64,000 bases of DNA, from contig JAIPGM010000005.1 in NCBI GenBank assembly GCA_021735655.1, positions 32,001 through 96,000 of the forward strand, written 5' to 3'. Shown here piece after piece: positions 2,734 to 21,011 of the stretch. The translations under genes and the position numbers were made by a program. Origin of the DNA: Candidatus Omnitrophota bacterium (GTDB taxonomy: Bacteria; Omnitrophota; Gorgyraeia; Duberdicusellales; 4484-171). Position 1 is the stretch's first letter. Each line of letters starts with the position of its first letter. A model generated the notes under the pieces. That model did not search any database, was not told the origin of the DNA, and saw nothing but the letters and a program-made list of their open reading frames with translations.

Positions 2734-3500
2734 GGCAGTATGTGATCCTGTGATTCTTCCCAGGAGACAATCTTGCTAGTTCCTATATCATAAGCTGCCT
2801 TAAGAGTACGTCTCCAGGTATAATTTGTGACTATCTTACCAGTAGAAGTTATATTCATAACATTATCAGAAGTAAGACCAGAGTTTAAAAGCATAACTTC
2901 AACCGTACTCCCATCGCTAAAAGTAATAACTGCTGTAATAGTCATGGGAGTAATATCGCTGCCTATTTCCCAATCCAACCAAACATCATTCTCAGTTGTA
3001 CCAGCCGGTATTGTAAAATCAGCCATGTCAATGTTAGTTCCACTCTGAGCGGTTCCAGTCCACTCAGCAGTTGCCCGACCCAAATCTATACTAATTAAGT
3101 TCTCACCGGCATCAGGGGTCCAGCTTACCTGCACATGAGTTATAGTAAGATCACCACCGCTAACATTGGTCATGCTAACATTTTTCAATTTTCGATTAGC
3201 AATTATGTTTGTGGTGCTTGAATCAGCAATAAAAAACATGCCTGAGCCGCCAAAAGAATAATAAGTATTTGGGTCTATCGCAATATCGGCTTGAGCGCTA
3301 ACTAAACCATCAGCTTCGTAGTCAGCTACTGCCGCCATAACTCCGGCCTGAGCAGCATAAAAAGCCTTTTGCTGATCAATGCTAGCGATATTATACTCTA
3401 AGGCTTGACTTATATAGACTACAATACCTAAGGCTACTATAGCCATTAAAACAACTATAATGATTACTGCAATTAAAGCAAAACTCTTATGTTTGATCAT
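2730..3500 (-). CDS. PilX-like minor pilin (prepilin-like N-terminal helix without Glu5)
   Basis: N-terminus MIKHKSFALIAVIIIVVLMAIVALGIV is a charged leader followed by a hydrophobic helix that lacks Glu5, as in PilX/FimU-like minor pilins. It lies directly downstream of pilA. Confidence 0.45.
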   Translation of the reverse strand: MIKHKSFALIAVIIIVVLMAIVALGIVVYISQALEYNIASIDQQKAFYAAQAGVMAAVADYEADGLVSAQADIAIDPNTYYSFGGSGMFFIADSSTTNIIANRKLKNVSMTNVSGGDLTITHVQVSWTPDAGENLISIDLGRATAEWTGTAQSGTNIDMADFTIPAGTTENDVWLDWEIGSDITPMTITAVITFSDGSTVEVMLLNSGLTSDNVMNITSTGKIVTNYTWRRTLKAAYDIGTSKIVSWEESQDHILP

Positions 3501-13780: not shown

Positions 13781-15307
13781 TTAAACGGGTAGAGTAAATA
13801 TAAAACGGGAGCCTTTTCCTTCACCCTTAGAACTAGCCTCTATTTTTCCCTTATGTTCCTGAATGATATCTTTACAAATTGCAAGGCCCAGCCCAGTTCC
13901 TTCAACTTTTCCGCTTCTGGCTGGTTTAATTTGCTCAAAGGAATGAAAAAGTTTTGGAATATCATTTTTCTTTATACCGATTCCGGTATCAAAAACTTCA
14001 ACTTCGATACTATTGTCTATTTTTCTGGTAACTACAATAACTTCGCCTTTTTTGGTAAATTTAATCGCATTACTGACTAAGTTGCTGATAACTTGACTAA
14101 TCCGATCCTTATCAAACCTTGGCTTAGGTAAATCCTGACCAAGCTTTAAGCTAAACTGCAAACCTTTACGCTCAGCCAAAGGTTGCATTATTTCATAAAC
14201 ATCCCTGACAACCTCATTGACATCGTCCTCTTTAAGCCTAAGCTCCATCTTGCCGGCTTCCAGCTTTTGAAATTCTAAAACATCATTAATCAAACGAGCT
14301 AGACGATTAACGTTCTTTTTGGCCATCGAGAGAAGGTTCTTTTGCTCAGTGTTTGTATCTCCGGCCAACCCATCGAAAACTATACTAATGCTGGTTTTAA
14401 TTGCCGCCAAAGGTGTCCGCAGCTCATGAGAAACCATTGAAGTTAGTTTTGACTTATATTCCACAGCCTCGCGTAACTTTTCTTCAACTCTTTTACGTTC
14501 GCTAATCTCTTTTTTAAGTTCAAGAGTACGCTCATCGACTAATTCTTCAAGATGATCCTGATATTTCTTTAACTCATCGGTCATCGTATTAAACAAAGAA
14601 GCCAAATCGCCGATCTCGTCATTGCCCTTGACCTCGGTATGACGTCCAAATTCCTTATGAGAAATAATATATCTAATAGCTCCCAACAGCTTCGAAATCG
14701 GAACAATAACAATCCTAGAAAGGCTCTGATAAAATAAAAATATACAAAAACCTAAGGCTAACAGTAAAACCAAAAGGTTTTGAGCCCGCATTTTTCTTAT
14801 TTTACTATTTATAATTTCTTGTTTTATCCCAACATTGATCGTCCCGATAACCTCTTCGAACCAAGGAATTGGAATAATTGACTCATAATACTTACCAATA
14901 ACCAAAGTCCTCCGTTGGGAAGTTTTTAACGGATAGAGGTCACCGTATTTACCTTTGTCATAAATACTACTAAAAAAAGGAGATTTAGCATGGTATAAAA
15001 TCTTTCCATCCCGATCAGCAATAAAGCAATAATCAATGCCTTCATTTGCAAATAAAACACTCTGCAAATATTCATCCATACCCGAAAATTCATCGAGCGA
15101 AAAATAACGTAAATTATTGTGTACAGTCCGACGCAAAGCCTTACCAACCGCATAAGATTTTTCCTCCAAGGCTTCTTTATAAGCTACTTTAAAAGAAAAA
15201 ATGGTAATCAATGAATTAGCAGCTACCGCTACAACAATAACTAAAAGAATAACCGAAAATAGCTTGGTTTTGACACTTATATATTTCTTCTCTGATTTTT
15301 TATTCAT
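13781..15307 (-). CDS. Membrane sensor histidine kinase (periplasmic loop, HAMP, HisKA, HATPase)
   Basis: Two TM segments. H-box HELRTPLAAIKTS and G-boxes DTGIGI / GTGLGLAICK. 4-nt overlap with the upstream binding-protein gene. Confidence 0.85.
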   Translation of the reverse strand: MNKKSEKKYISVKTKLFSVILLVIVVAVAANSLITIFSFKVAYKEALEEKSYAVGKALRRTVHNNLRYFSLDEFSGMDEYLQSVLFANEGIDYCFIADRDGKILYHAKSPFFSSIYDKGKYGDLYPLKTSQRRTLVIGKYYESIIPIPWFEEVIGTINVGIKQEIINSKIRKMRAQNLLVLLLALGFCIFLFYQSLSRIVIVPISKLLGAIRYIISHKEFGRHTEVKGNDEIGDLASLFNTMTDELKKYQDHLEELVDERTLELKKEISERKRVEEKLREAVEYKSKLTSMVSHELRTPLAAIKTSISIVFDGLAGDTNTEQKNLLSMAKKNVNRLARLINDVLEFQKLEAGKMELRLKEDDVNEVVRDVYEIMQPLAERKGLQFSLKLGQDLPKPRFDKDRISQVISNLVSNAIKFTKKGEVIVVTRKIDNSIEVEVFDTGIGIKKNDIPKLFHSFEQIKPARSGKVEGTGLGLAICKDIIQEHKGKIEASSKGEGKGSRFIFTLPV

Positions 15308-16398
15308 TTAACTATATTTTCTCCGGACATTTCTATATATTCAACCGGAACTTTAATTCCGAACTCCTCAGCTTTACGCAAATCAAAAGCAAAACCATTA
15401 TTCTTCGGCCATTCTGGATATATCTCTTTGATTGATCTACCTTCGAATAGCTCTTTAATCATTCTGGCAGCTTGGTGGCCCATGCTTCGGTTAGAAGGAT
15501 ATACAACCATAGTCGCTCCCCAGCCTTGCATAACCGACTCCTTTCCTAGACCAATCAAAGGCTTAGTCGCGTTTTCATAAACCATACGACAAAAATACTC
15601 CTGCACCCCCATCTGATCATTAGGGGCCAAGAAAACATCAACTATCGGATCAAGTTCTAAAACAAACCTCTTAGCTGCTTCAGCCATATATTTGCTTCCT
15701 TTTTCGCCAACAACTAAAGGCACTGAACGAAAAATAATCTTAAAATTCTTAAACTCAAGATTAGTTTTAAAAAGCTCCTCGGCCCACTTACGATAACTCC
15801 TTGACTGAGGCATATCAGCATAAATAAGACCAATAATTTTTGCCTTAGGCATTAACTCTTTGATAAATTCAAAACGGGTCGCAACTCTTAGAGGGTAATG
15901 GACTCCGGTAAAATTATACTTAGGCGGCGCATCAAAATCTTCAATTACTCCAATTCCAACTGGATCGGTATTAGCAGCAAAAACAGCTACTTGATCCTTG
16001 CCTAAAAGTACATTTTTAGCAGCAACGGTCATCACTGTACCATTAATAAAAATAATATCATAATTGTTCGGTAACTGTTCCTTGAGAATCGCCTCGCCTT
16101 TTTTTATATCATTTTCAATGACAAAGTAAGCCAGGCTTAAATTGCCCCCTTCTCGATAACCCCAATAACTGAGACGTTCAAGCATAGCTTCCCTTACCTC
16201 TTTATAGGGCTCTCCGGTTTGAGAATCCAAAATAAGCAGTTTAAAATTTCGGGAAGAATTTTTAGCCACCGCTGGCTGATTCTCGGTAAATAGTGCGGTT
16301 TCCTCAACTCGATCAGAATTAGTACAGGAAATAATTAGGCCTAGGCAAACAAAAATAAACGACCTTAATAATAAATTTAAAAAATTAACACCTTTCAT
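15304..16398 (-). CDS. Periplasmic substrate-binding protein of the ABC_sub_bind (PF04392-like) family, probable lipoprotein
   Basis: Start taken at the internal Met (MKGVNFLNLLLRSFIFVCLGLIISC) because it gives a lipoprotein-type signal. The ORF-track start at 16503 is less likely. The VAVFAANTDPVGIGV region is typical of this family. It is coupled to the downstream kinase. Confidence 0.6.
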   Translation of the reverse strand: MKGVNFLNLLLRSFIFVCLGLIISCTNSDRVEETALFTENQPAVAKNSSRNFKLLILDSQTGEPYKEVREAMLERLSYWGYREGGNLSLAYFVIENDIKKGEAILKEQLPNNYDIIFINGTVMTVAAKNVLLGKDQVAVFAANTDPVGIGVIEDFDAPPKYNFTGVHYPLRVATRFEFIKELMPKAKIIGLIYADMPQSRSYRKWAEELFKTNLEFKNFKIIFRSVPLVVGEKGSKYMAEAAKRFVLELDPIVDVFLAPNDQMGVQEYFCRMVYENATKPLIGLGKESVMQGWGATMVVYPSNRSMGHQAARMIKELFEGRSIKEIYPEWPKNNGFAFDLRKAEEFGIKVPVEYIEMSGENIVK

Positions 16399-16512
16399 CT
16401 TATGGTGATATTTTACCATAAACCATAAGACACAAAAACAAAAAATCCCCACCTTTTTTAAGGTGGGGATAGCTTGCTTAATTGTTCCTTCAGCCCAATT
16501 CAAGGACTAAGG

Positions 16513-17688
16513 TTATTTCCCTAAGTTAATCGCTCTGACCTTTACAACACCTTCAATCTTAGAAAGAGCTTTTATAGTCTCCTCCTTAGGTTCATCTGAA
16601 GCATCGATAATCGTACAAGCATAGCCGGCTTTACTCTTATTTAACATCTCAACGATATTAATATTGGCTTTAGCTAAAATCGTTGAAACCTGACCAACCA
16701 TATTCGGAATATCTTTATTCATAACTATCAACCGGTGACTAGAATTTTGCTCTAATTTACAGTCAGGAAAATTAACTGAATTCTTAATAACCCCCCGCTC
16801 AATGAAATTACGCAACTGCTTAACAACCATTACTGCGCAATTAGTTTCGGCCTCTTGGGTTGAAGCACCAAGATGAGGTATGGCTATTACCTTATCCATG
16901 TTAAGTAGTTCATCATCAGGAAAATCAGTTACATATCTCTCAACTATACCGTCTTTGATTGCTTTAGCTAAATCATCATTGTTTACTATTCCACCACGGG
17001 AAAGATTTAAAATCCTGACACCTTTTTTCATCCGAGAAAACTTCTCACTATCAACCATTCCTTTAGTTGCATCAGTCAAAGGCGTGTGCAGCGAAATATA
17101 ATCTGCTTCAGCCATAAGTGCATCTAAACCATTAGCTCGTTTTACCTGTCTTGAAAGACCCCAAGCCGACTCAACCGAGATAAACGGATCATAGCCAACA
17201 ACCTCCATACCCAAATCTAAAGCAGCATTGGCCACCATAACCCCGATTTTACCTAAGCCAACAATACCGAGAGTTTTGCCCATAATCTCAAAACCGGCAA
17301 AATCTTTCTTATTCTTTTCTACCGAGGTCGGAACTTCAGTTCCCTTTCCCTTAAGTGATTCAGAAAAGGCAATACCCTTAGAGATATCCCTTGAAGCTAG
17401 CAGCAATCCGGCTATAGTCAACTCTTTTACGGCGTTAGCATTGGCTCCCGGAGTATTAAAAACAACCACCCCTCTTTCTGAGCACTTATCAATCGAAATA
17501 TTGTTGGTTCCGGCTCCAGCCCGACCCACCGCAAGAAGAGATTTCGGTAACTCCATATCATGCATCTTAAAGCTTCGGAGGATTATTGCTTCGGGATTAG
17601 TAACTTCAGTACCAATCTCATATTGATCAAGCGGAAAAAGGGCTAAGCCCTCTGTTGAAATTTTATCTAGTTTCATTACCTTATACAT
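16513..17688 (-). CDS. serA: D-3-phosphoglycerate dehydrogenase (2-hydroxyacid dehydrogenase fold with C-terminal ACT domain)
   Basis: NAD-binding GLGKIGVMVANAA motif. The catalytic region and a C-terminal ACT-like domain are present. Start reassigned to the second ATG of AAGGAGGATATGATG, where the strong RBS lies, instead of the ORF-track start at 17778 that would overlap serC by 70 nt. Confidence 0.8.
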   Translation of the reverse strand: MYKVMKLDKISTEGLALFPLDQYEIGTEVTNPEAIILRSFKMHDMELPKSLLAVGRAGAGTNNISIDKCSERGVVVFNTPGANANAVKELTIAGLLLASRDISKGIAFSESLKGKGTEVPTSVEKNKKDFAGFEIMGKTLGIVGLGKIGVMVANAALDLGMEVVGYDPFISVESAWGLSRQVKRANGLDALMAEADYISLHTPLTDATKGMVDSEKFSRMKKGVRILNLSRGGIVNNDDLAKAIKDGIVERYVTDFPDDELLNMDKVIAIPHLGASTQEAETNCAVMVVKQLRNFIERGVIKNSVNFPDCKLEQNSSHRLIVMNKDIPNMVGQVSTILAKANINIVEMLNKSKAGYACTIIDASDEPKEETIKALSKIEGVVKVRAINLGK

Positions 17689-17707
17689 CATATCCTCCTT
17701 TAGTTGC

Positions 17708-18790
17708 TTATCGGTTTGTTTTTTCGAATTCTTCCATAAGTTCAACAAGTTTTTTAACCCCTTCAACCGGCATGGCATTGTAAATACTAGCTCGCATGCC
17801 GCCGACAGTACGGTGTCCTTTCAAAGTCTTAAAACCTTTAGCTGAAGCCTCCTCGATGAATTTCGCATCTAGCTCCTTATTCCCGGTAACAAAAGGGACA
17901 TTCATCAAAGAACGGTTTTCTTTTTTAACCGGACTGCTGAAAAGTTTTGACTGATCTAAATAGCTATAGAGAATTTCTGCTTTTTCACGATTGAGCTTTT
18001 CGATTGCCGCCAGTCCTCCTTTTCCCTTAATCCAGGCAAAAACTAACCCGGCTATATAGATTGAATAGCAGGGCGGTGTATTGAACATCGAACCGGCGTC
18101 AAGATGAGTTTTGTAATTAAGCATCGCCGGAATACTGTCTGGAGCCTGGCCTACTAAATCTTCACGGATGATAACCAAGGTAACACCGGCTGGTCCGATA
18201 TTTTTCTGAGCTCCGGCAAAGATAACTCCAAATTTTGAAACATCAATTGGCTCAGACAAAATATTAGAAGACATATCGGCGATTAAAGGAACTGCCCCTG
18301 TATTAGGGATCTTTTCATAAACTGTTCCGTAAATCGTATTGTTAGTTGCGATATAGAAATAGTCAGCGTCTTTAGAAAAATCATCAGAATTAAGTTCCGG
18401 GATATAAGTAAAATTCTTATCTTCGGAACTGGCAACAACCTTAACCGCCCCCTGTTTCTTAGCTTCGGCTATTGCTTTCTTGGTCCATTGGCCGGTATGC
18501 ACATAGTCGGCTTTTTTATTTTTGACCATTAAGTTCAAGGGAATCATCGAGAACTGTAAACTTGCCCCGCCTTGCAAAAACAAAACCTTATAGTTATCCG
18601 GAATAGCCATGATTTCTCGTAGGGTAGCTTCGGCCGTCTCGATAATACCTTTAAACTCCTTGCCGCGATGAGAAAGTTCCATTACACTCATACCACTTCC
18701 TTGATAATTAAACATCTCTGCGGCAGCTTTCTTCAAAACTTCCTCTGGCAAAACTGCTGGTCCAGCACTAAAATTGTATACCCTCTCCAT
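17708..18790 (-). CDS. serC: Phosphoserine aminotransferase
   Basis: 360 aa. N-terminus MERVYNFSAGPAVLPEEVL and the PLP-binding region are typical of SerC. RBS AAAGGGGGG. The start lies 2 nt after the rex stop. Confidence 0.85.
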   Translation of the reverse strand: MERVYNFSAGPAVLPEEVLKKAAAEMFNYQGSGMSVMELSHRGKEFKGIIETAEATLREIMAIPDNYKVLFLQGGASLQFSMIPLNLMVKNKKADYVHTGQWTKKAIAEAKKQGAVKVVASSEDKNFTYIPELNSDDFSKDADYFYIATNNTIYGTVYEKIPNTGAVPLIADMSSNILSEPIDVSKFGVIFAGAQKNIGPAGVTLVIIREDLVGQAPDSIPAMLNYKTHLDAGSMFNTPPCYSIYIAGLVFAWIKGKGGLAAIEKLNREKAEILYSYLDQSKLFSSPVKKENRSLMNVPFVTGNKELDAKFIEEASAKGFKTLKGHRTVGGMRASIYNAMPVEGVKKLVELMEEFEKTNR

Positions 18791-18792
18791 GG

Positions 18793-19410
18793 TTACCCCC
18801 CTTTAAGTGATGCGGCAACAAACCGCAAAGCATTAGTAAAATCCATATCTAAATACATAATATTTTCTGGCACTATAATTTTAATCGCTGAAAAATTTAA
18901 AATACCACGCACCCCGGCTTTGATTAACTTATCGGCTACGGCCTGAGCTGAGCCTGCCGGAACAGCGATTATTGCCAACTCAATGTTTCGCTGTTTAATA
19001 ATACTTTCTAATTGGTTATCGCCAAAAACATCGATAGCAGTGCGAATTCTTTCAATCTTATTAATACTGCAATCAAACCCAGCCACAATTTCAAATCCAT
19101 CCTCCTGAAACTTTTCATAATCTAGGAGAGCGCTCCCGAGACGTCCCAAGCCAACAATACAGGCCTTGCGCTTCTGATTTAAATTAAGCTTACGCCCCAA
19201 CTCTTGCTTTAAACCGCTAACTTCGTAGCCTTTTCGAGTGTAACCGGTAAGGCCTAAAGAGCTAATATCTTTACGCACCGTATATTCAGTAGCACCAATA
19301 GCTTTAGCCAGATTCAGAGAAGATACAAAATCAACTCCTTGCTTTTCTAAGGTGTTTAAATATCCAAAAATCTTACAAATTCGCTCAAGACTATTATCTG
19401 ATAAACTCAT
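18793..19410 (-). CDS. rex: Redox-sensing transcriptional repressor Rex
   Basis: 205 aa. N-terminal winged helix is followed by a Rossmann domain with CIVGLGRLGSAL. There are two Rex-box-like inverted repeats upstream. Confidence 0.8.
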   Translation of the reverse strand: MSLSDNSLERICKIFGYLNTLEKQGVDFVSSLNLAKAIGATEYTVRKDISSLGLTGYTRKGYEVSGLKQELGRKLNLNQKRKACIVGLGRLGSALLDYEKFQEDGFEIVAGFDCSINKIERIRTAIDVFGDNQLESIIKQRNIELAIIAVPAGSAQAVADKLIKAGVRGILNFSAIKIIVPENIMYLDMDFTNALRFVAASLKGG

Positions 19411-19431
19411 ATATGTTCCTTAACCTTATTT

Positions 19432-19449
19432 AAGTGAAATAATTCACTA
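19432..19449. promoter_or_regulatory. Rex-box-like operator (AAGTGAA-ATAA-TTCACTA)
   Basis: Matches the Rex consensus TTGTGAA-N4-TTCACAA at 11 of 14 half-site positions. It lies 22 nt upstream of the rex ATG. Confidence 0.5.
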
Positions 19450-19564
19450 TTATAGCTAATTTATACCCTATATTACCCTGAATGTCAAGATATTTTATGG
19501 TATTTTTTAGGCTAACTAATAAATGTATATTTTTCAATCGATTATCAGTATGATTCCTATAATA

Positions 19565-19583
19565 TTAGTGAAATTTTTCACCC
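19565..19583. promoter_or_regulatory. Second Rex-box-like operator (TAGTGAA-ATTT-TTCACCC)
   Basis: Same GTGAA-N4-TTCAC core, about 155 nt upstream of rex. Confidence 0.45.
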
Positions 19584-19604: not shown

Positions 19605-21011
19605 TTATTGCCGGCCAGACAAAAATACAGTTTCGTCTTTTGCCGGAATACTGACTTTAATATTGTGCTTTTTCAGGTTAGTTCTTAATACCTCAGACTG
19701 CTCTTCGTCACCATGAACAATAAAAACCTTCTTTAACTTACCTTGGCATTTTTTAACATATTCGACCAGACCATTTTTATCCGAATGTGAACTAAAAGCA
19801 TTTAAAGTAACTACTTCGGCATTTAATTTATAAGGATGACCAAAGATCTTAACTTCCGGGTTTCTTTCAACAATTCTTCGGCCTAAGGTATTTTTAGCCA
19901 TATAGCCAATTGCAATTATGGTGTTGTGTGGATTTTCAATATTGTTTTTTAAATGGTGAAGTATTCGACCATTTTCGCACATTCCGGAAGCTGATATTAT
20001 TATCATCGGGCTTTTCTTTTCATTAAGCTTCTTTGATTTGTTGACATCAGTTATATAGGTAATGCTGCCATAACCTAAAGGATCCTCTTCTCTTTGAAAA
20101 GCCTGCTGAGTGATATCATCGAAATACTGCCAATTTTCCCGAAATACTTTAGTCAAATTCACCGCCAGGGGACTATCAACATAAATTGGAATCTTTTTTA
20201 TCTTTTTACGCTTTATCAACTCACTGATAAAAAATACAATTAACTGTGTTCTTTCTAAAGCAAAAGAAGGGATGATAATTTTACCGCCCCGCTTAATCGT
20301 ACGATTTACAGCAGCAGCCAGCTCTTCCTCAGCATCTTCGATACTTGAGTGACTTCTCCCACCATAGGTACTTTCAATTATAAGGTAATCTATATCTTTG
20401 GGAACTTCCGGATTTCTAAGTAAGGGCATGCCATAGCGGCCTAGGTCTACGGCATAAGCTATGCGCATATTGCCATGAGTAGTTTTAATATCAAGGGTTG
20501 GTACAGTTGAACCAAGAATATGCCCGGCTTCAAAAAAAGTTAAATCTATCTCTCTGGCCAAAGGAAATTTTTGATGATATTCCAAAGATCTAATATATTT
20601 AAGTGACTTCTCAGCATCTTTTTTAGTATAAAGTGGTTCCCTTGGCGGGAGATGTTTACGACGGTTAATCTTATTTACATAACGAACATCTTCTTCCTGG
20701 ACATAACCACTATCAGCAAGCATGTAATGCAATAATTTCTTAGTGACCGGAGTAGCAAATACATGTGAACGATAGCCGTTTTTTATTAAAGTCGGGATAT
20801 TACCACAATGATCGATATGAGCGTGGGAGACCACGCAGGCCTTTAAGCTTTGTGGGTTAAAGGAAAACTTTGAATTAACTTGGTAGGTTTCATCCCGACG
20901 ACCATGGAAAAGGCCGCAATCAAGCAATATACTGGAATGATCTGTAGATACAAGATGCTGCGAGCCGGTAACTGTACGAGCTCCGCCGCAGAATTTAATC
21001 GTTACTGTCAA
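19605..21011 (-). CDS. MBL-fold metallo-hydrolase of the beta-CASP family (RNA-metabolising; RNase J/CPSF-like)
   Basis: HAHIDHCG metallo-beta-lactamase motif and the beta-CASP region. 468 aa. Confidence 0.7.
   Translation of the reverse strand: MTVTIKFCGGARTVTGSQHLVSTDHSSILLDCGLFHGRRDETYQVNSKFSFNPQSLKACVVSHAHIDHCGNIPTLIKNGYRSHVFATPVTKKLLHYMLADSGYVQEEDVRYVNKINRRKHLPPREPLYTKKDAEKSLKYIRSLEYHQKFPLAREIDLTFFEAGHILGSTVPTLDIKTTHGNMRIAYAVDLGRYGMPLLRNPEVPKDIDYLIIESTYGGRSHSSIEDAEEELAAAVNRTIKRGGKIIIPSFALERTQLIVFFISELIKRKKIKKIPIYVDSPLAVNLTKVFRENWQYFDDITQQAFQREEDPLGYGSITYITDVNKSKKLNEKKSPMIIISASGMCENGRILHHLKNNIENPHNTIIAIGYMAKNTLGRRIVERNPEVKIFGHPYKLNAEVVTLNAFSSHSDKNGLVEYVKKCQGKLKKVFIVHGDEEQSEVLRTNLKKHNIKVSIPAKDETVFLSGRQ

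Follow-up and report, generated by a model that had tools for sequence, protein, structure and literature searches.

A rex-serC-serA operon with two predicted Rex operators in Candidatus Omnitrophota, conserved together with a serine-linked clade of Rex repressors

Rex is the textbook sensor of the NADH/NAD+ ratio in anaerobic and fermentative metabolism, and its link to amino acid biosynthesis has so far been noted only in passing. Here we analyze a locus of a Candidatus Omnitrophota bacterium (GenBank assembly GCA_021735655.1) in which rex is directly followed by the serine biosynthesis genes serC and serA and preceded by two predicted Rex operators (Rex boxes). The locus lies on the minus strand of the window, that is, the whole stretch of 64,000 nucleotides that was analyzed (contig JAIPGM010000005.1, positions 32,001 to 96,000); coordinates are those of the window unless a related locus (L number) is named.

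The Rex proteins of Bacillus subtilis and Staphylococcus aureus belong to the same family as that of the window and share the operator core and the expected response to NADH. These regulators act on genes of fermentation and respiration (ldh, adh, cyd, ndh), and the accounts drawn upon here name no serine biosynthesis genes as targets. The operator core of classical regulons is given as TTGTGAA-N4-TTCACAA (PMC2883068). Streptomyces provides a likeness in layout: rex is co-transcribed with hemACD and autoregulated via an operator in its own promoter (PMC5355995), so that there, too, an operon with rex at its head continues into biosynthetic genes. The Streptomyces system differs in its cargo, heme, and in the role of Rex, which controls respiratory genes (cyd, nuo, atp) globally; a layout of two operators spaced by 56-153 bp is not described in the consulted portion of that account (PMC5355995).

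The likeness in gene content comes from Caldicellulosiruptor. In Caldicellulosiruptor bescii, Rex binds upstream of an operon encoding a class-V aminotransferase and a D-3-phosphoglycerate dehydrogenase (PGDH) in an electrophoretic mobility shift assay, and deletion of rex raises the expression of this operon by a log2 value of 0.57-0.63 (about 1.5-fold); the authors termed the link between Rex and serine 'not well understood' (PMC6391272). SerC and SerA rank among the best-conserved Rex regulon members across Caldicellulosiruptor genomes (PMC8579813), and a reconstruction of 2012, cited in PMC6391272, placed an aminotransferase of the serine pathway in the Rex regulon of Thermotogales. As predicted for the window, a Rex operator stands in the promoter of an operon for an aminotransferase and an NAD-dependent dehydrogenase of the phosphorylated serine pathway; the NADH sensitivity of binding is reported for C. 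bescii Rex in general (PMC6391272). Unlike the window gene, C. bescii rex is separate, monocistronic and autoregulated, and acts in trans on a larger regulon, which includes hydrogenases and pyruvate:ferredoxin oxidoreductase, and the aminotransferase is annotated as the alanine-glyoxylate type of class V, whereas the window SerC is a canonical SerC equivalog. In the window, the serine operon begins with rex and has two predicted operators, and the protein belongs to a Rex clade all members of which are linked to ser genes.

An earlier note on this DNA had placed the serine genes outside the classical Rex regulon. That claim of novelty was overstated, because Rex binding at an aminotransferase-PGDH operon had already been demonstrated in C. 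bescii (PMC6391272), and the Caldicellulosiruptor regulon shows the same link. The principle of Rex control over serine genes is not new, and neither are autoregulated operons of rex with biosynthetic genes; what appears to be new is the cis-fused module with two operators and a dedicated Rex subfamily. A literature search for Rex together with phosphoserine aminotransferase or PGDH, and for Rex of Omnitrophota, retrieved no description of a rex-serC-serA fusion, of the two-operator promoter or of a ser-linked Rex clade.

The three genes are arranged compactly (Table 1). Only two nucleotides (CC) separate the rex stop codon from the serC ATG, and the purine-rich Shine-Dalgarno stretch of serC, AAAGGGGGG, sits within the final rex codons, exactly as the earlier note had it. 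Close spacing of serC and serA holds as well, although the gap is 19 nt rather than the 20 nt claimed, when measured to the ATG at 17688, which is preceded by GGAGG at a distance of 5 nt; an alternative ATG at 17691 would leave 16 nt. The serA open reading frame (ORF) as listed is 421 aa long and begins at an in-frame upstream ATG overlapping serC, and the homologues align from the ATG at 17688. The strong intrinsic terminator starts 43 nt past the serA stop codon, and the terminator scan of the window detected no terminator-like site with a credible stem between rex, serC and serA. An independent internal promoter of serC-serA, named by the earlier note among the findings that would refute its reading, was looked for: the 12 promoter-like matches inside rex are at background level (8.9 +/- 3.1 expected from shuffles). 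Neither a conserved internal promoter nor an internal Rex box was found in the operon of the window or of the inspected relatives. Gene order, spacing and terminator are those of one three-gene operon, and suggest that the three genes are co-transcribed.

Both boxes are located within the 194-bp gap between rex and the upstream gene, which encodes a beta-CASP nuclease. The proximal box lies 23 nt 5' of the rex ATG, immediately downstream of the -10 region, and the distal box lies 157 nt 5' of the ATG and 23 nt past the beta-CASP stop codon, 134 bp from the proximal one; the two boxes had been recognized in the earlier note, with distances (22 and about 155 nt) that are corrected here. Exact matches to GTGAA-N4-TTCAC number two in 64 kb against 0.06 expected, and none of 100 shuffles contained two or more. 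When the window was scanned with a position weight matrix (PWM) built from the sites of the relatives, the two boxes came out on top; the third-best site, at 11.5 bits, is intragenic, and beyond the boxes the 64 kb contain no Rex site above that score. The two sites with one mismatch in the window (27997 and 55288) are intragenic as well. A putative promoter with a TTGACA -35 and a TATAAA -10 hexamer precedes the proximal box, and it is the second -10-like hexamer that is positionally homologous to the -10 found in the relatives. Because the proximal box abuts the -10 region, a Rex dimer bound there would cover the DNA just downstream of the -10, the classical position of a repressor.

Table 1. 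Features of the rex-serC-serA locus and its neighbors in the window
Feature	Coordinates	Strand	Remarks
Beta-CASP/metallo-beta-lactamase nuclease gene	19605..21011	minus	468 aa; upstream, co-directional
Distal Rex operator (predicted)	19568..19581		GTGAAAAATTTCAC as read on the minus strand; core palindromic; exact match; PWM 21.5 bits
Putative -35 (TTGACA)	19483..19488	minus	read from the sequence
Putative -10 (TATAAA)	19460..19465	minus	17 nt past TTGACA
Second -10-like hexamer (TATAAT)	19449..19454	minus	directly abuts the proximal box
Proximal Rex operator (predicted)	19434..19447		GTGAATTATTTCAC as read on the minus strand; exact GTGAA-N4-TTCAC; PWM 25.3 bits
rex, redox-sensing transcriptional repressor	18793..19410	minus	205 aa; ATG 19410, TAA 18795-18793
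serC, phosphoserine aminotransferase	17708..18790	minus	360 aa; ATG 18790, TAA 17710-17708
serA, D-3-phosphoglycerate dehydrogenase (very likely)	16513..17688	minus	391 aa; E. coli-like length class; C-terminal ACT-type domain
Intrinsic terminator closing the operon	16445..16470	minus	11-bp stem (6 G-C pairs), 4-nt loop, T-rich tail
ABC-type substrate-binding protein ORF, as listed	15304..16503	minus	downstream
Sensor histidine kinase gene	13781..15307		follows the substrate-binding protein gene

The predicted repressor combines the Rex-specific PF06971 at the N-terminus (residues 4-50) with a Rossmann-type PF02629 domain (residues 78-175), in line with the winged-helix DNA-binding domain, the NAD(H)-binding domain and the length of about 200-220 aa that characterize the Rex family. 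It exceeds the cut-offs of three NCBIfam Rex models (NF003995, 179.9 against 126; NF003994, 171.7 against 130; NF003996, 163.4 against 138) and matches, with 100% identity, a protein from a metagenome-assembled genome (MAG) of Candidatus Omnitrophica that carries the name Rex at NCBI. In a PDB search, residues 5-196 align to structure sequences of Thermus aquaticus Rex (T-Rex; E=7e-31). The motifs VRKDIS, GLGRLG and FD(113) as well as Y98 and D190-F191 align with T. aquaticus 3IKT/1XCB, and the RKD of the recognition helix, the GxGxxG loop, Y98, D113 and D190-F191 are invariant among 23 clade members. We take the roles of these residues to be those in the T-Rex structures, namely, R-K-D in the recognition helix, GxGxxG in the dinucleotide loop, the acidic residue after beta-2 in the selection of NAD(H), and Tyr98 together with the C-terminal Asp-Phe pair, the latter presumably in NADH sensing. 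Judging by this alignment, the predicted DNA-binding and NADH-sensing residues of the window Rex are intact.

SerC scores above the cut-offs of NF003764 (565.9 against 253) and TIGR01364 (526.4 against 443.6) and is thus a phosphoserine aminotransferase equivalog. SerA consists of PF02826 and PF00389 (2-Hacid_dh) domains; its 25 best PDB matches are all PGDHs, and residues 46-387 align full-length, ACT region included, to PGDHs of 403-410 aa. The two best NCBIfam matches of SerA are PGDH models as well, yet both scores are under the equivalog cut-offs (281.8 against 454 and 213.1 against 404), and for this reason we hold the protein to be very likely, rather than certainly, a PGDH. The constant synteny with serC is also supportive, and the models of PdxB and glyoxylate reductase score far lower than those of PGDH. 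A PdxB/SerC pathway to pyridoxal phosphate was considered for the gene pair and rejected, the PdxB models being far below the PGDH models.

The module is not confined to the window. The order of rex followed by serC-serA, or by serA alone, is found in all of the approximately 30 ser-linked loci, which come from Omnitrophota, Auribacterota, Fibrobacterota, KSB1 and Spirochaetota, that is, at least five phyla; in nearly all of these, the proximal box abuts the -10 region, and in most, the distal box lies 56-153 bp further upstream. The operon with two boxes, as originally read from the window sequence, is present with all its elements, and its gene order and the box beside the promoter are conserved. 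A genome scan with the Rex protein yielded nine Omnitrophota loci with 66-77% identity: serC and serA lie downstream of rex on the same strand in each of the eight for which downstream DNA is available, the proximal box is present in all nine, 17-23 nt from the ATG, and a distal box with at most one mismatch is present in eight, 149-170 nt from the ATG. A metagenome scan added 80 Rex loci. Every locus with 63-74% Rex identity and downstream DNA encodes SerC and/or SerA downstream of Rex, and among the approximately 70 loci with 34-42% identity, four are also ser-linked (L022, L023, L031 and L083), each with a canonical TGTGAA-N4-TTCACA box ahead of rex.

All 19 close relatives have an exact proximal box, 14-27 nt from the rex ATG, and the distal box (at most one mismatch) is present in 16, at 112-170 nt; the exceptions include L002, which has no distal box, and L017, where only a box with two mismatches is found, 69 nt from the ATG. 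Further Rex-box matches in the related loci are limited to sites with one mismatch in coding DNA. The gene upstream of rex varies between the loci in identity and orientation while the distal box persists, which argues that this box belongs to the control region of rex rather than to the neighboring gene. In an alignment of the upstream regions, where the mean column identity is 50%, both boxes and the promoter stand out. The putative promoter of the relatives takes the form TTGACA-N16/17-(TGn)TATATT/TATAAT; in L004 and L005, it matches the consensus at 11 of 12 positions with an extended -10 and surpasses every other match in 3.6 kb, and its end is only 1-2 nt away from the proximal box, which follows it. 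The distal box of L004 is centered in a longer palindrome of 14 pairs, GCATTATTGGTGAAATATTTCACTAGTAATGC (3158-3189), which was also matched by the terminator scan on the opposite strand.

A second branch of the ser-linked loci extends beyond the close relatives. The L022 Rex is 85% identical to a Rex named from a Fibrobacter sp. MAG, and its other relatives are named Chitinispirillales, Chitinivibrionales, KSB1 and Spirochaetota. The relatives from this branch that were looked up (the cultured Chitinispirillales bacterium ANBcel5, GCA_029688955.1; KSB1, Spirochaetota and Spirochaetales MAGs; and others) contain the module in seven cases out of seven: rex precedes genes for an aminotransferase of class V (360 aa) and a 2-hydroxyacid dehydrogenase (387-393 aa), or in L097 for the dehydrogenase alone; the boxes are again present in nearly all seven, and the distal box is found in Fibrobacterota-like, KSB1 and Spirochaetales loci. 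A 'Candidatus Aureabacteria' genome, from the group listed at NCBI as Candidatus Auribacterota, has rex-serA without serC. Because serC is missing in several loci (L010/L011, L019, L097), SerA is the constant partner of Rex. The neighborhood of the module in these branches includes a DUF1015 gene that adjoins rex-serC-serA in KSB1 and Spirochaetota loci (L094 7031-8275, L095 2523-3749) and a DUF2225 gene located divergently upstream in two Fibrobacterota-like loci (L093 2754-3728, L096 2785-3762).

The ser-linked Rex proteins form a clade of their own. In a distance-based (neighbor-joining) tree of 95 Rex sequences, drawn from the loci collected with peptide patterns derived from Omnitrophota proteins and exclusive of the experimentally studied Rex proteins, all ser-linked Rex fall on one side and all 59 Rex from loci without ser genes on the other, a split that is recovered in 197 of 200 bootstraps. 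Both the module and this dedicated clade are conserved. The clade is distinguished by I49, L52, C84, L88, G111, N117, E120 and R196, and the signature residues located beside the adenosine-binding Asp113 might tune the response to the effector. The operators differ between branches at the base just outside the GTGAA core: this base is A in 16 of 19 proximal sites of the Omnitrophota type (TTA-GTGAA...TTCAC-TnA; 19 Omnitrophota and Auribacterota loci) and, in the branch that comprises Fibrobacterota, KSB1 and Spirochaetota (L022, L023, L031, L083, L093-L099), the canonical T (TGTGAA...TTCACA). This lineage-specific shift of the operator flank may match the recognition-helix substitutions I49 and L52.

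We consider it likely that the window encodes a single rex-serC-serA operon subject to NAD+-dependent autorepression by Rex, with NADH relieving the repression and inducing SerA and SerC. A single promoter of the sigma-70 type would transcribe the three genes up to the single intrinsic terminator. The Rex dimer, in its NAD+-bound or apo state, would bind the proximal operator, located next to the -10/+1 region or overlapping it, and block RNA polymerase; the distal operator 134 bp upstream would probably strengthen the repression, perhaps through cooperative binding, looping, or a roadblock to read-through from the upstream gene. With a rising NADH/NAD+ ratio, NADH would close the Rex dimer, Rex would leave the DNA, and the three proteins would be made from one mRNA, the outcome being negative autoregulation of rex combined with NADH-induced production of PGDH and phosphoserine aminotransferase. 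Coupling of serC-serA to the NADH/NAD+ balance via an autoregulated Rex, as the earlier note proposed, is supported by the sequence and the comparative evidence. The direction of control was left unaddressed there: classical Rex releases DNA at high NADH, and therefore would induce SerA rather than restrain it. Oxidation of 3-phosphoglycerate is thermodynamically very unfavorable and is inhibited by a high NADH/NAD+ ratio. From the thermodynamics of this reaction, the most likely physiological sense of the control is compensation, whereby a greater amount of SerA, with SerC pulling the product away, would keep up the serine flux in a reduced cytoplasm.

Several observations weigh against this reading or limit its reach. 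Its weakest part is the physiological logic, given that classical Rex induces enzymes that consume NADH, whereas a biosynthetic SerA produces it. The promoter of the window was assigned by eye as the probable one, and the automatic scan did not call it, because the scan rule requires a T at position 6 of the -10 hexamer; furthermore, the -35 hexamer of the window and of L001 is displaced by 11 nt in the upstream direction compared with the relatives. Just outside GTGAA, the boxes of Omnitrophota have A instead of the canonical T. The center-to-center spacings of the boxes (56, 92-96 in five loci, 126-127, 134-140 in most loci, 149 and 153 bp) have modes near 95 and 137 bp, equivalent to 9.05 and 13.05 helical turns, which is a hint at same-face cooperative binding of the two boxes or looping between them, but the phasing is suggestive rather than robust to relatedness (p=0.0004 with related loci counted, p=0.08 on unique spacings). 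Finally, many relatives have rex-serC and serC-serA gaps of 55-917 nt that are filled with G+C-rich hairpins, one of which is flagged as terminator-like (L005 6637-6659). Strict co-transcription therefore may not hold everywhere, and the expression ratios within the operon, and perhaps the coupling itself, may differ among lineages.

The shifted promoter hexamers and the long spacers were compared between loci. Aligned with L002-L009 (alignment columns 213-253), the window segment 19449-19488, like L001, pairs the shifted TTGACA with the new -10 TATAAA, and the ancestral -10 (TATAAT or TGTAAT) still adjoins the proximal box in both of them. The pattern resembles promoter turnover, by which the operator would have moved from about -5/+9 to about +6/+19. 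The spacers of the relatives (for example, those of L003-L009, L013 and L014, such as L006 5539-5708, L009 2415-2605, and L014 5628-6519 and 7603-8329) are generally 55-230 nt long, and those of L014, at 917 and 730 nt, contain no ORF of at least 60 aa. Their hairpins, often long and near-perfect and as stable as -88 kcal/mol, are non-homologous between the loci and look like palindromic insertions resembling repetitive extragenic palindromes or miniature inverted-repeat transposable elements (REP/MITE); the window and L001 are entirely free of hairpin spacers. Three loci share an element directly past the rex stop codon (L004 3967-4094, L005 6631-6700, L008 6625-6765) that consists of a hairpin, ATCCCGCC...GGCGGGAT, followed by TAATTTC and a second hairpin before the ribosome-binding site of serC (CAATTAAGGAGG); the first hairpin, which in L005 is the one flagged as terminator-like, could be a partial terminator or a processing site that sets the rex:serCA expression ratio. 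Neither the leader nor the long intergenic spacers matched a known RNA family when the window and eight related loci were scanned with Rfam, and accordingly, a riboswitch or T-box explanation of the spacers has no support; the only hits were two tRNAs elsewhere in L003.

The same cis-architecture could serve the opposite physiology, with SerA, together with SerC, acting as an NADH sink at high NADH, either by converting phosphohydroxypyruvate to 3-phosphoglycerate in serine catabolism or through a 2-oxoglutarate-reducing side activity of PGDH, an activity known for E. coli SerA; derepression by Rex would then contribute to the re-oxidation of NADH. The invariant partner of Rex in the module is indeed the NAD-dependent enzyme, SerA. 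Such a sink would agree with the NADH consumption that is the general rule for Rex targets (PMC5355995) and with the interpretation, according to PMC6391272, of the Rex-regulated aminotransferase of Thermotogales as part of an NADH-dependent serine utilization pathway. Nevertheless, SerC is a high-scoring biosynthetic phosphoserine aminotransferase equivalog, SerA retains the ACT-type domain typical of feedback-inhibited biosynthetic enzymes, and no genes for serine catabolism or transport are linked to the cluster in the inspected loci, so that we regard the sink as an unlikely alternative to compensation for the inhibited SerA step.

We deem it still less probable, indeed very unlikely, that Rex controls only itself and that serC-serA are expressed mainly from an internal promoter, located in rex or in the spacers of the relatives. 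Weak hexamer pairs (9/12) do occur in the 3' half of the window rex, and many relatives have the long, structured rex-serC spacers, one with the terminator-like hairpin. However, the matches in rex occur at the frequency expected from shuffles, and in the window, a 2-nt gap and a ribosome-binding site inside rex join rex to serC. The spacers of the relatives share only the ribosome-binding site and some hairpins, none of the matches in the rex-serC spacers of L004 and L005 exceeds 9/12, and the 70-nt spacer of L005 is made up wholly of hairpins. Moreover, preservation of the gene order in about 30 of 30 loci from five phyla, within one Rex clade only, would be hard to explain without a functional link. 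A different regulator for the boxes, such as a protein of the CRP/FNR family, is suggested by the fact that GTGAA-N4-TTCAC contains the consensus core GTGA-N6-TCAC of that family and that A replaces the canonical Rex flanking T in the Omnitrophota sites. We reject this explanation as hardly credible: the inner A and T that are specific to Rex operators (GTGAA / TTCAC) do not vary among the 19 proximal sites, the sites track rex in every phylum whatever the neighboring genes, distant members of the clade carry the full canonical TTGTGAA-N4-TTCACAA, and there is documented precedent for rex regulating itself via a site of this kind (PMC6391272; PMC5355995).

Further observations concern the genes that flank the operon in the window. 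The upstream, co-directional beta-CASP/metallo-beta-lactamase nuclease has its best NCBIfam matches in the type VII CRISPR Cas14 model (380 bits, with the cut-off far above, at 800) and the archaeal aCPSF1 model (317 bits); its gene is kept in this position upstream of rex only in L001, and no convincing terminator was found in the window between it and the distal Rex box. Downstream, the ORF for the ABC-type substrate-binding protein is listed from a TTG that overlaps the operon terminator. Alignment with its relatives begins only at residue 36 of this ORF, and the sequence MKGVNFLNLLL...LIISC resembles a lipoprotein signal peptide; the true start is probably an ATG near 16398, past the terminator.

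Fusion of this Rex clade to serA, usually together with serC, in at least five phyla suggests that redox control of the first and thermodynamically difficult step in serine synthesis is an old, selected trait rather than a quirk of one genus. Going further, the ser-linked clade could be a previously undescribed Rex subfamily, working in cis with PGDH across five phyla as a dedicated two-operator redox gate for the SerA step and not as a global regulator; we put this forward tentatively, as a possibility that falls short of being probable. If it is correct, these lineages, most of them anaerobic and many uncultured, would have the SerA step as a primary node under redox control, and the control could concern either the supply of serine or an NADH valve. 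With one promoter, two operators and three genes, the module would be a simple system in which to ask why a reduced cytoplasm wants more PGDH, and it may serve as a cis-regulatory marker for the annotation of Rex targets in uncultured phyla that lack regulon data.

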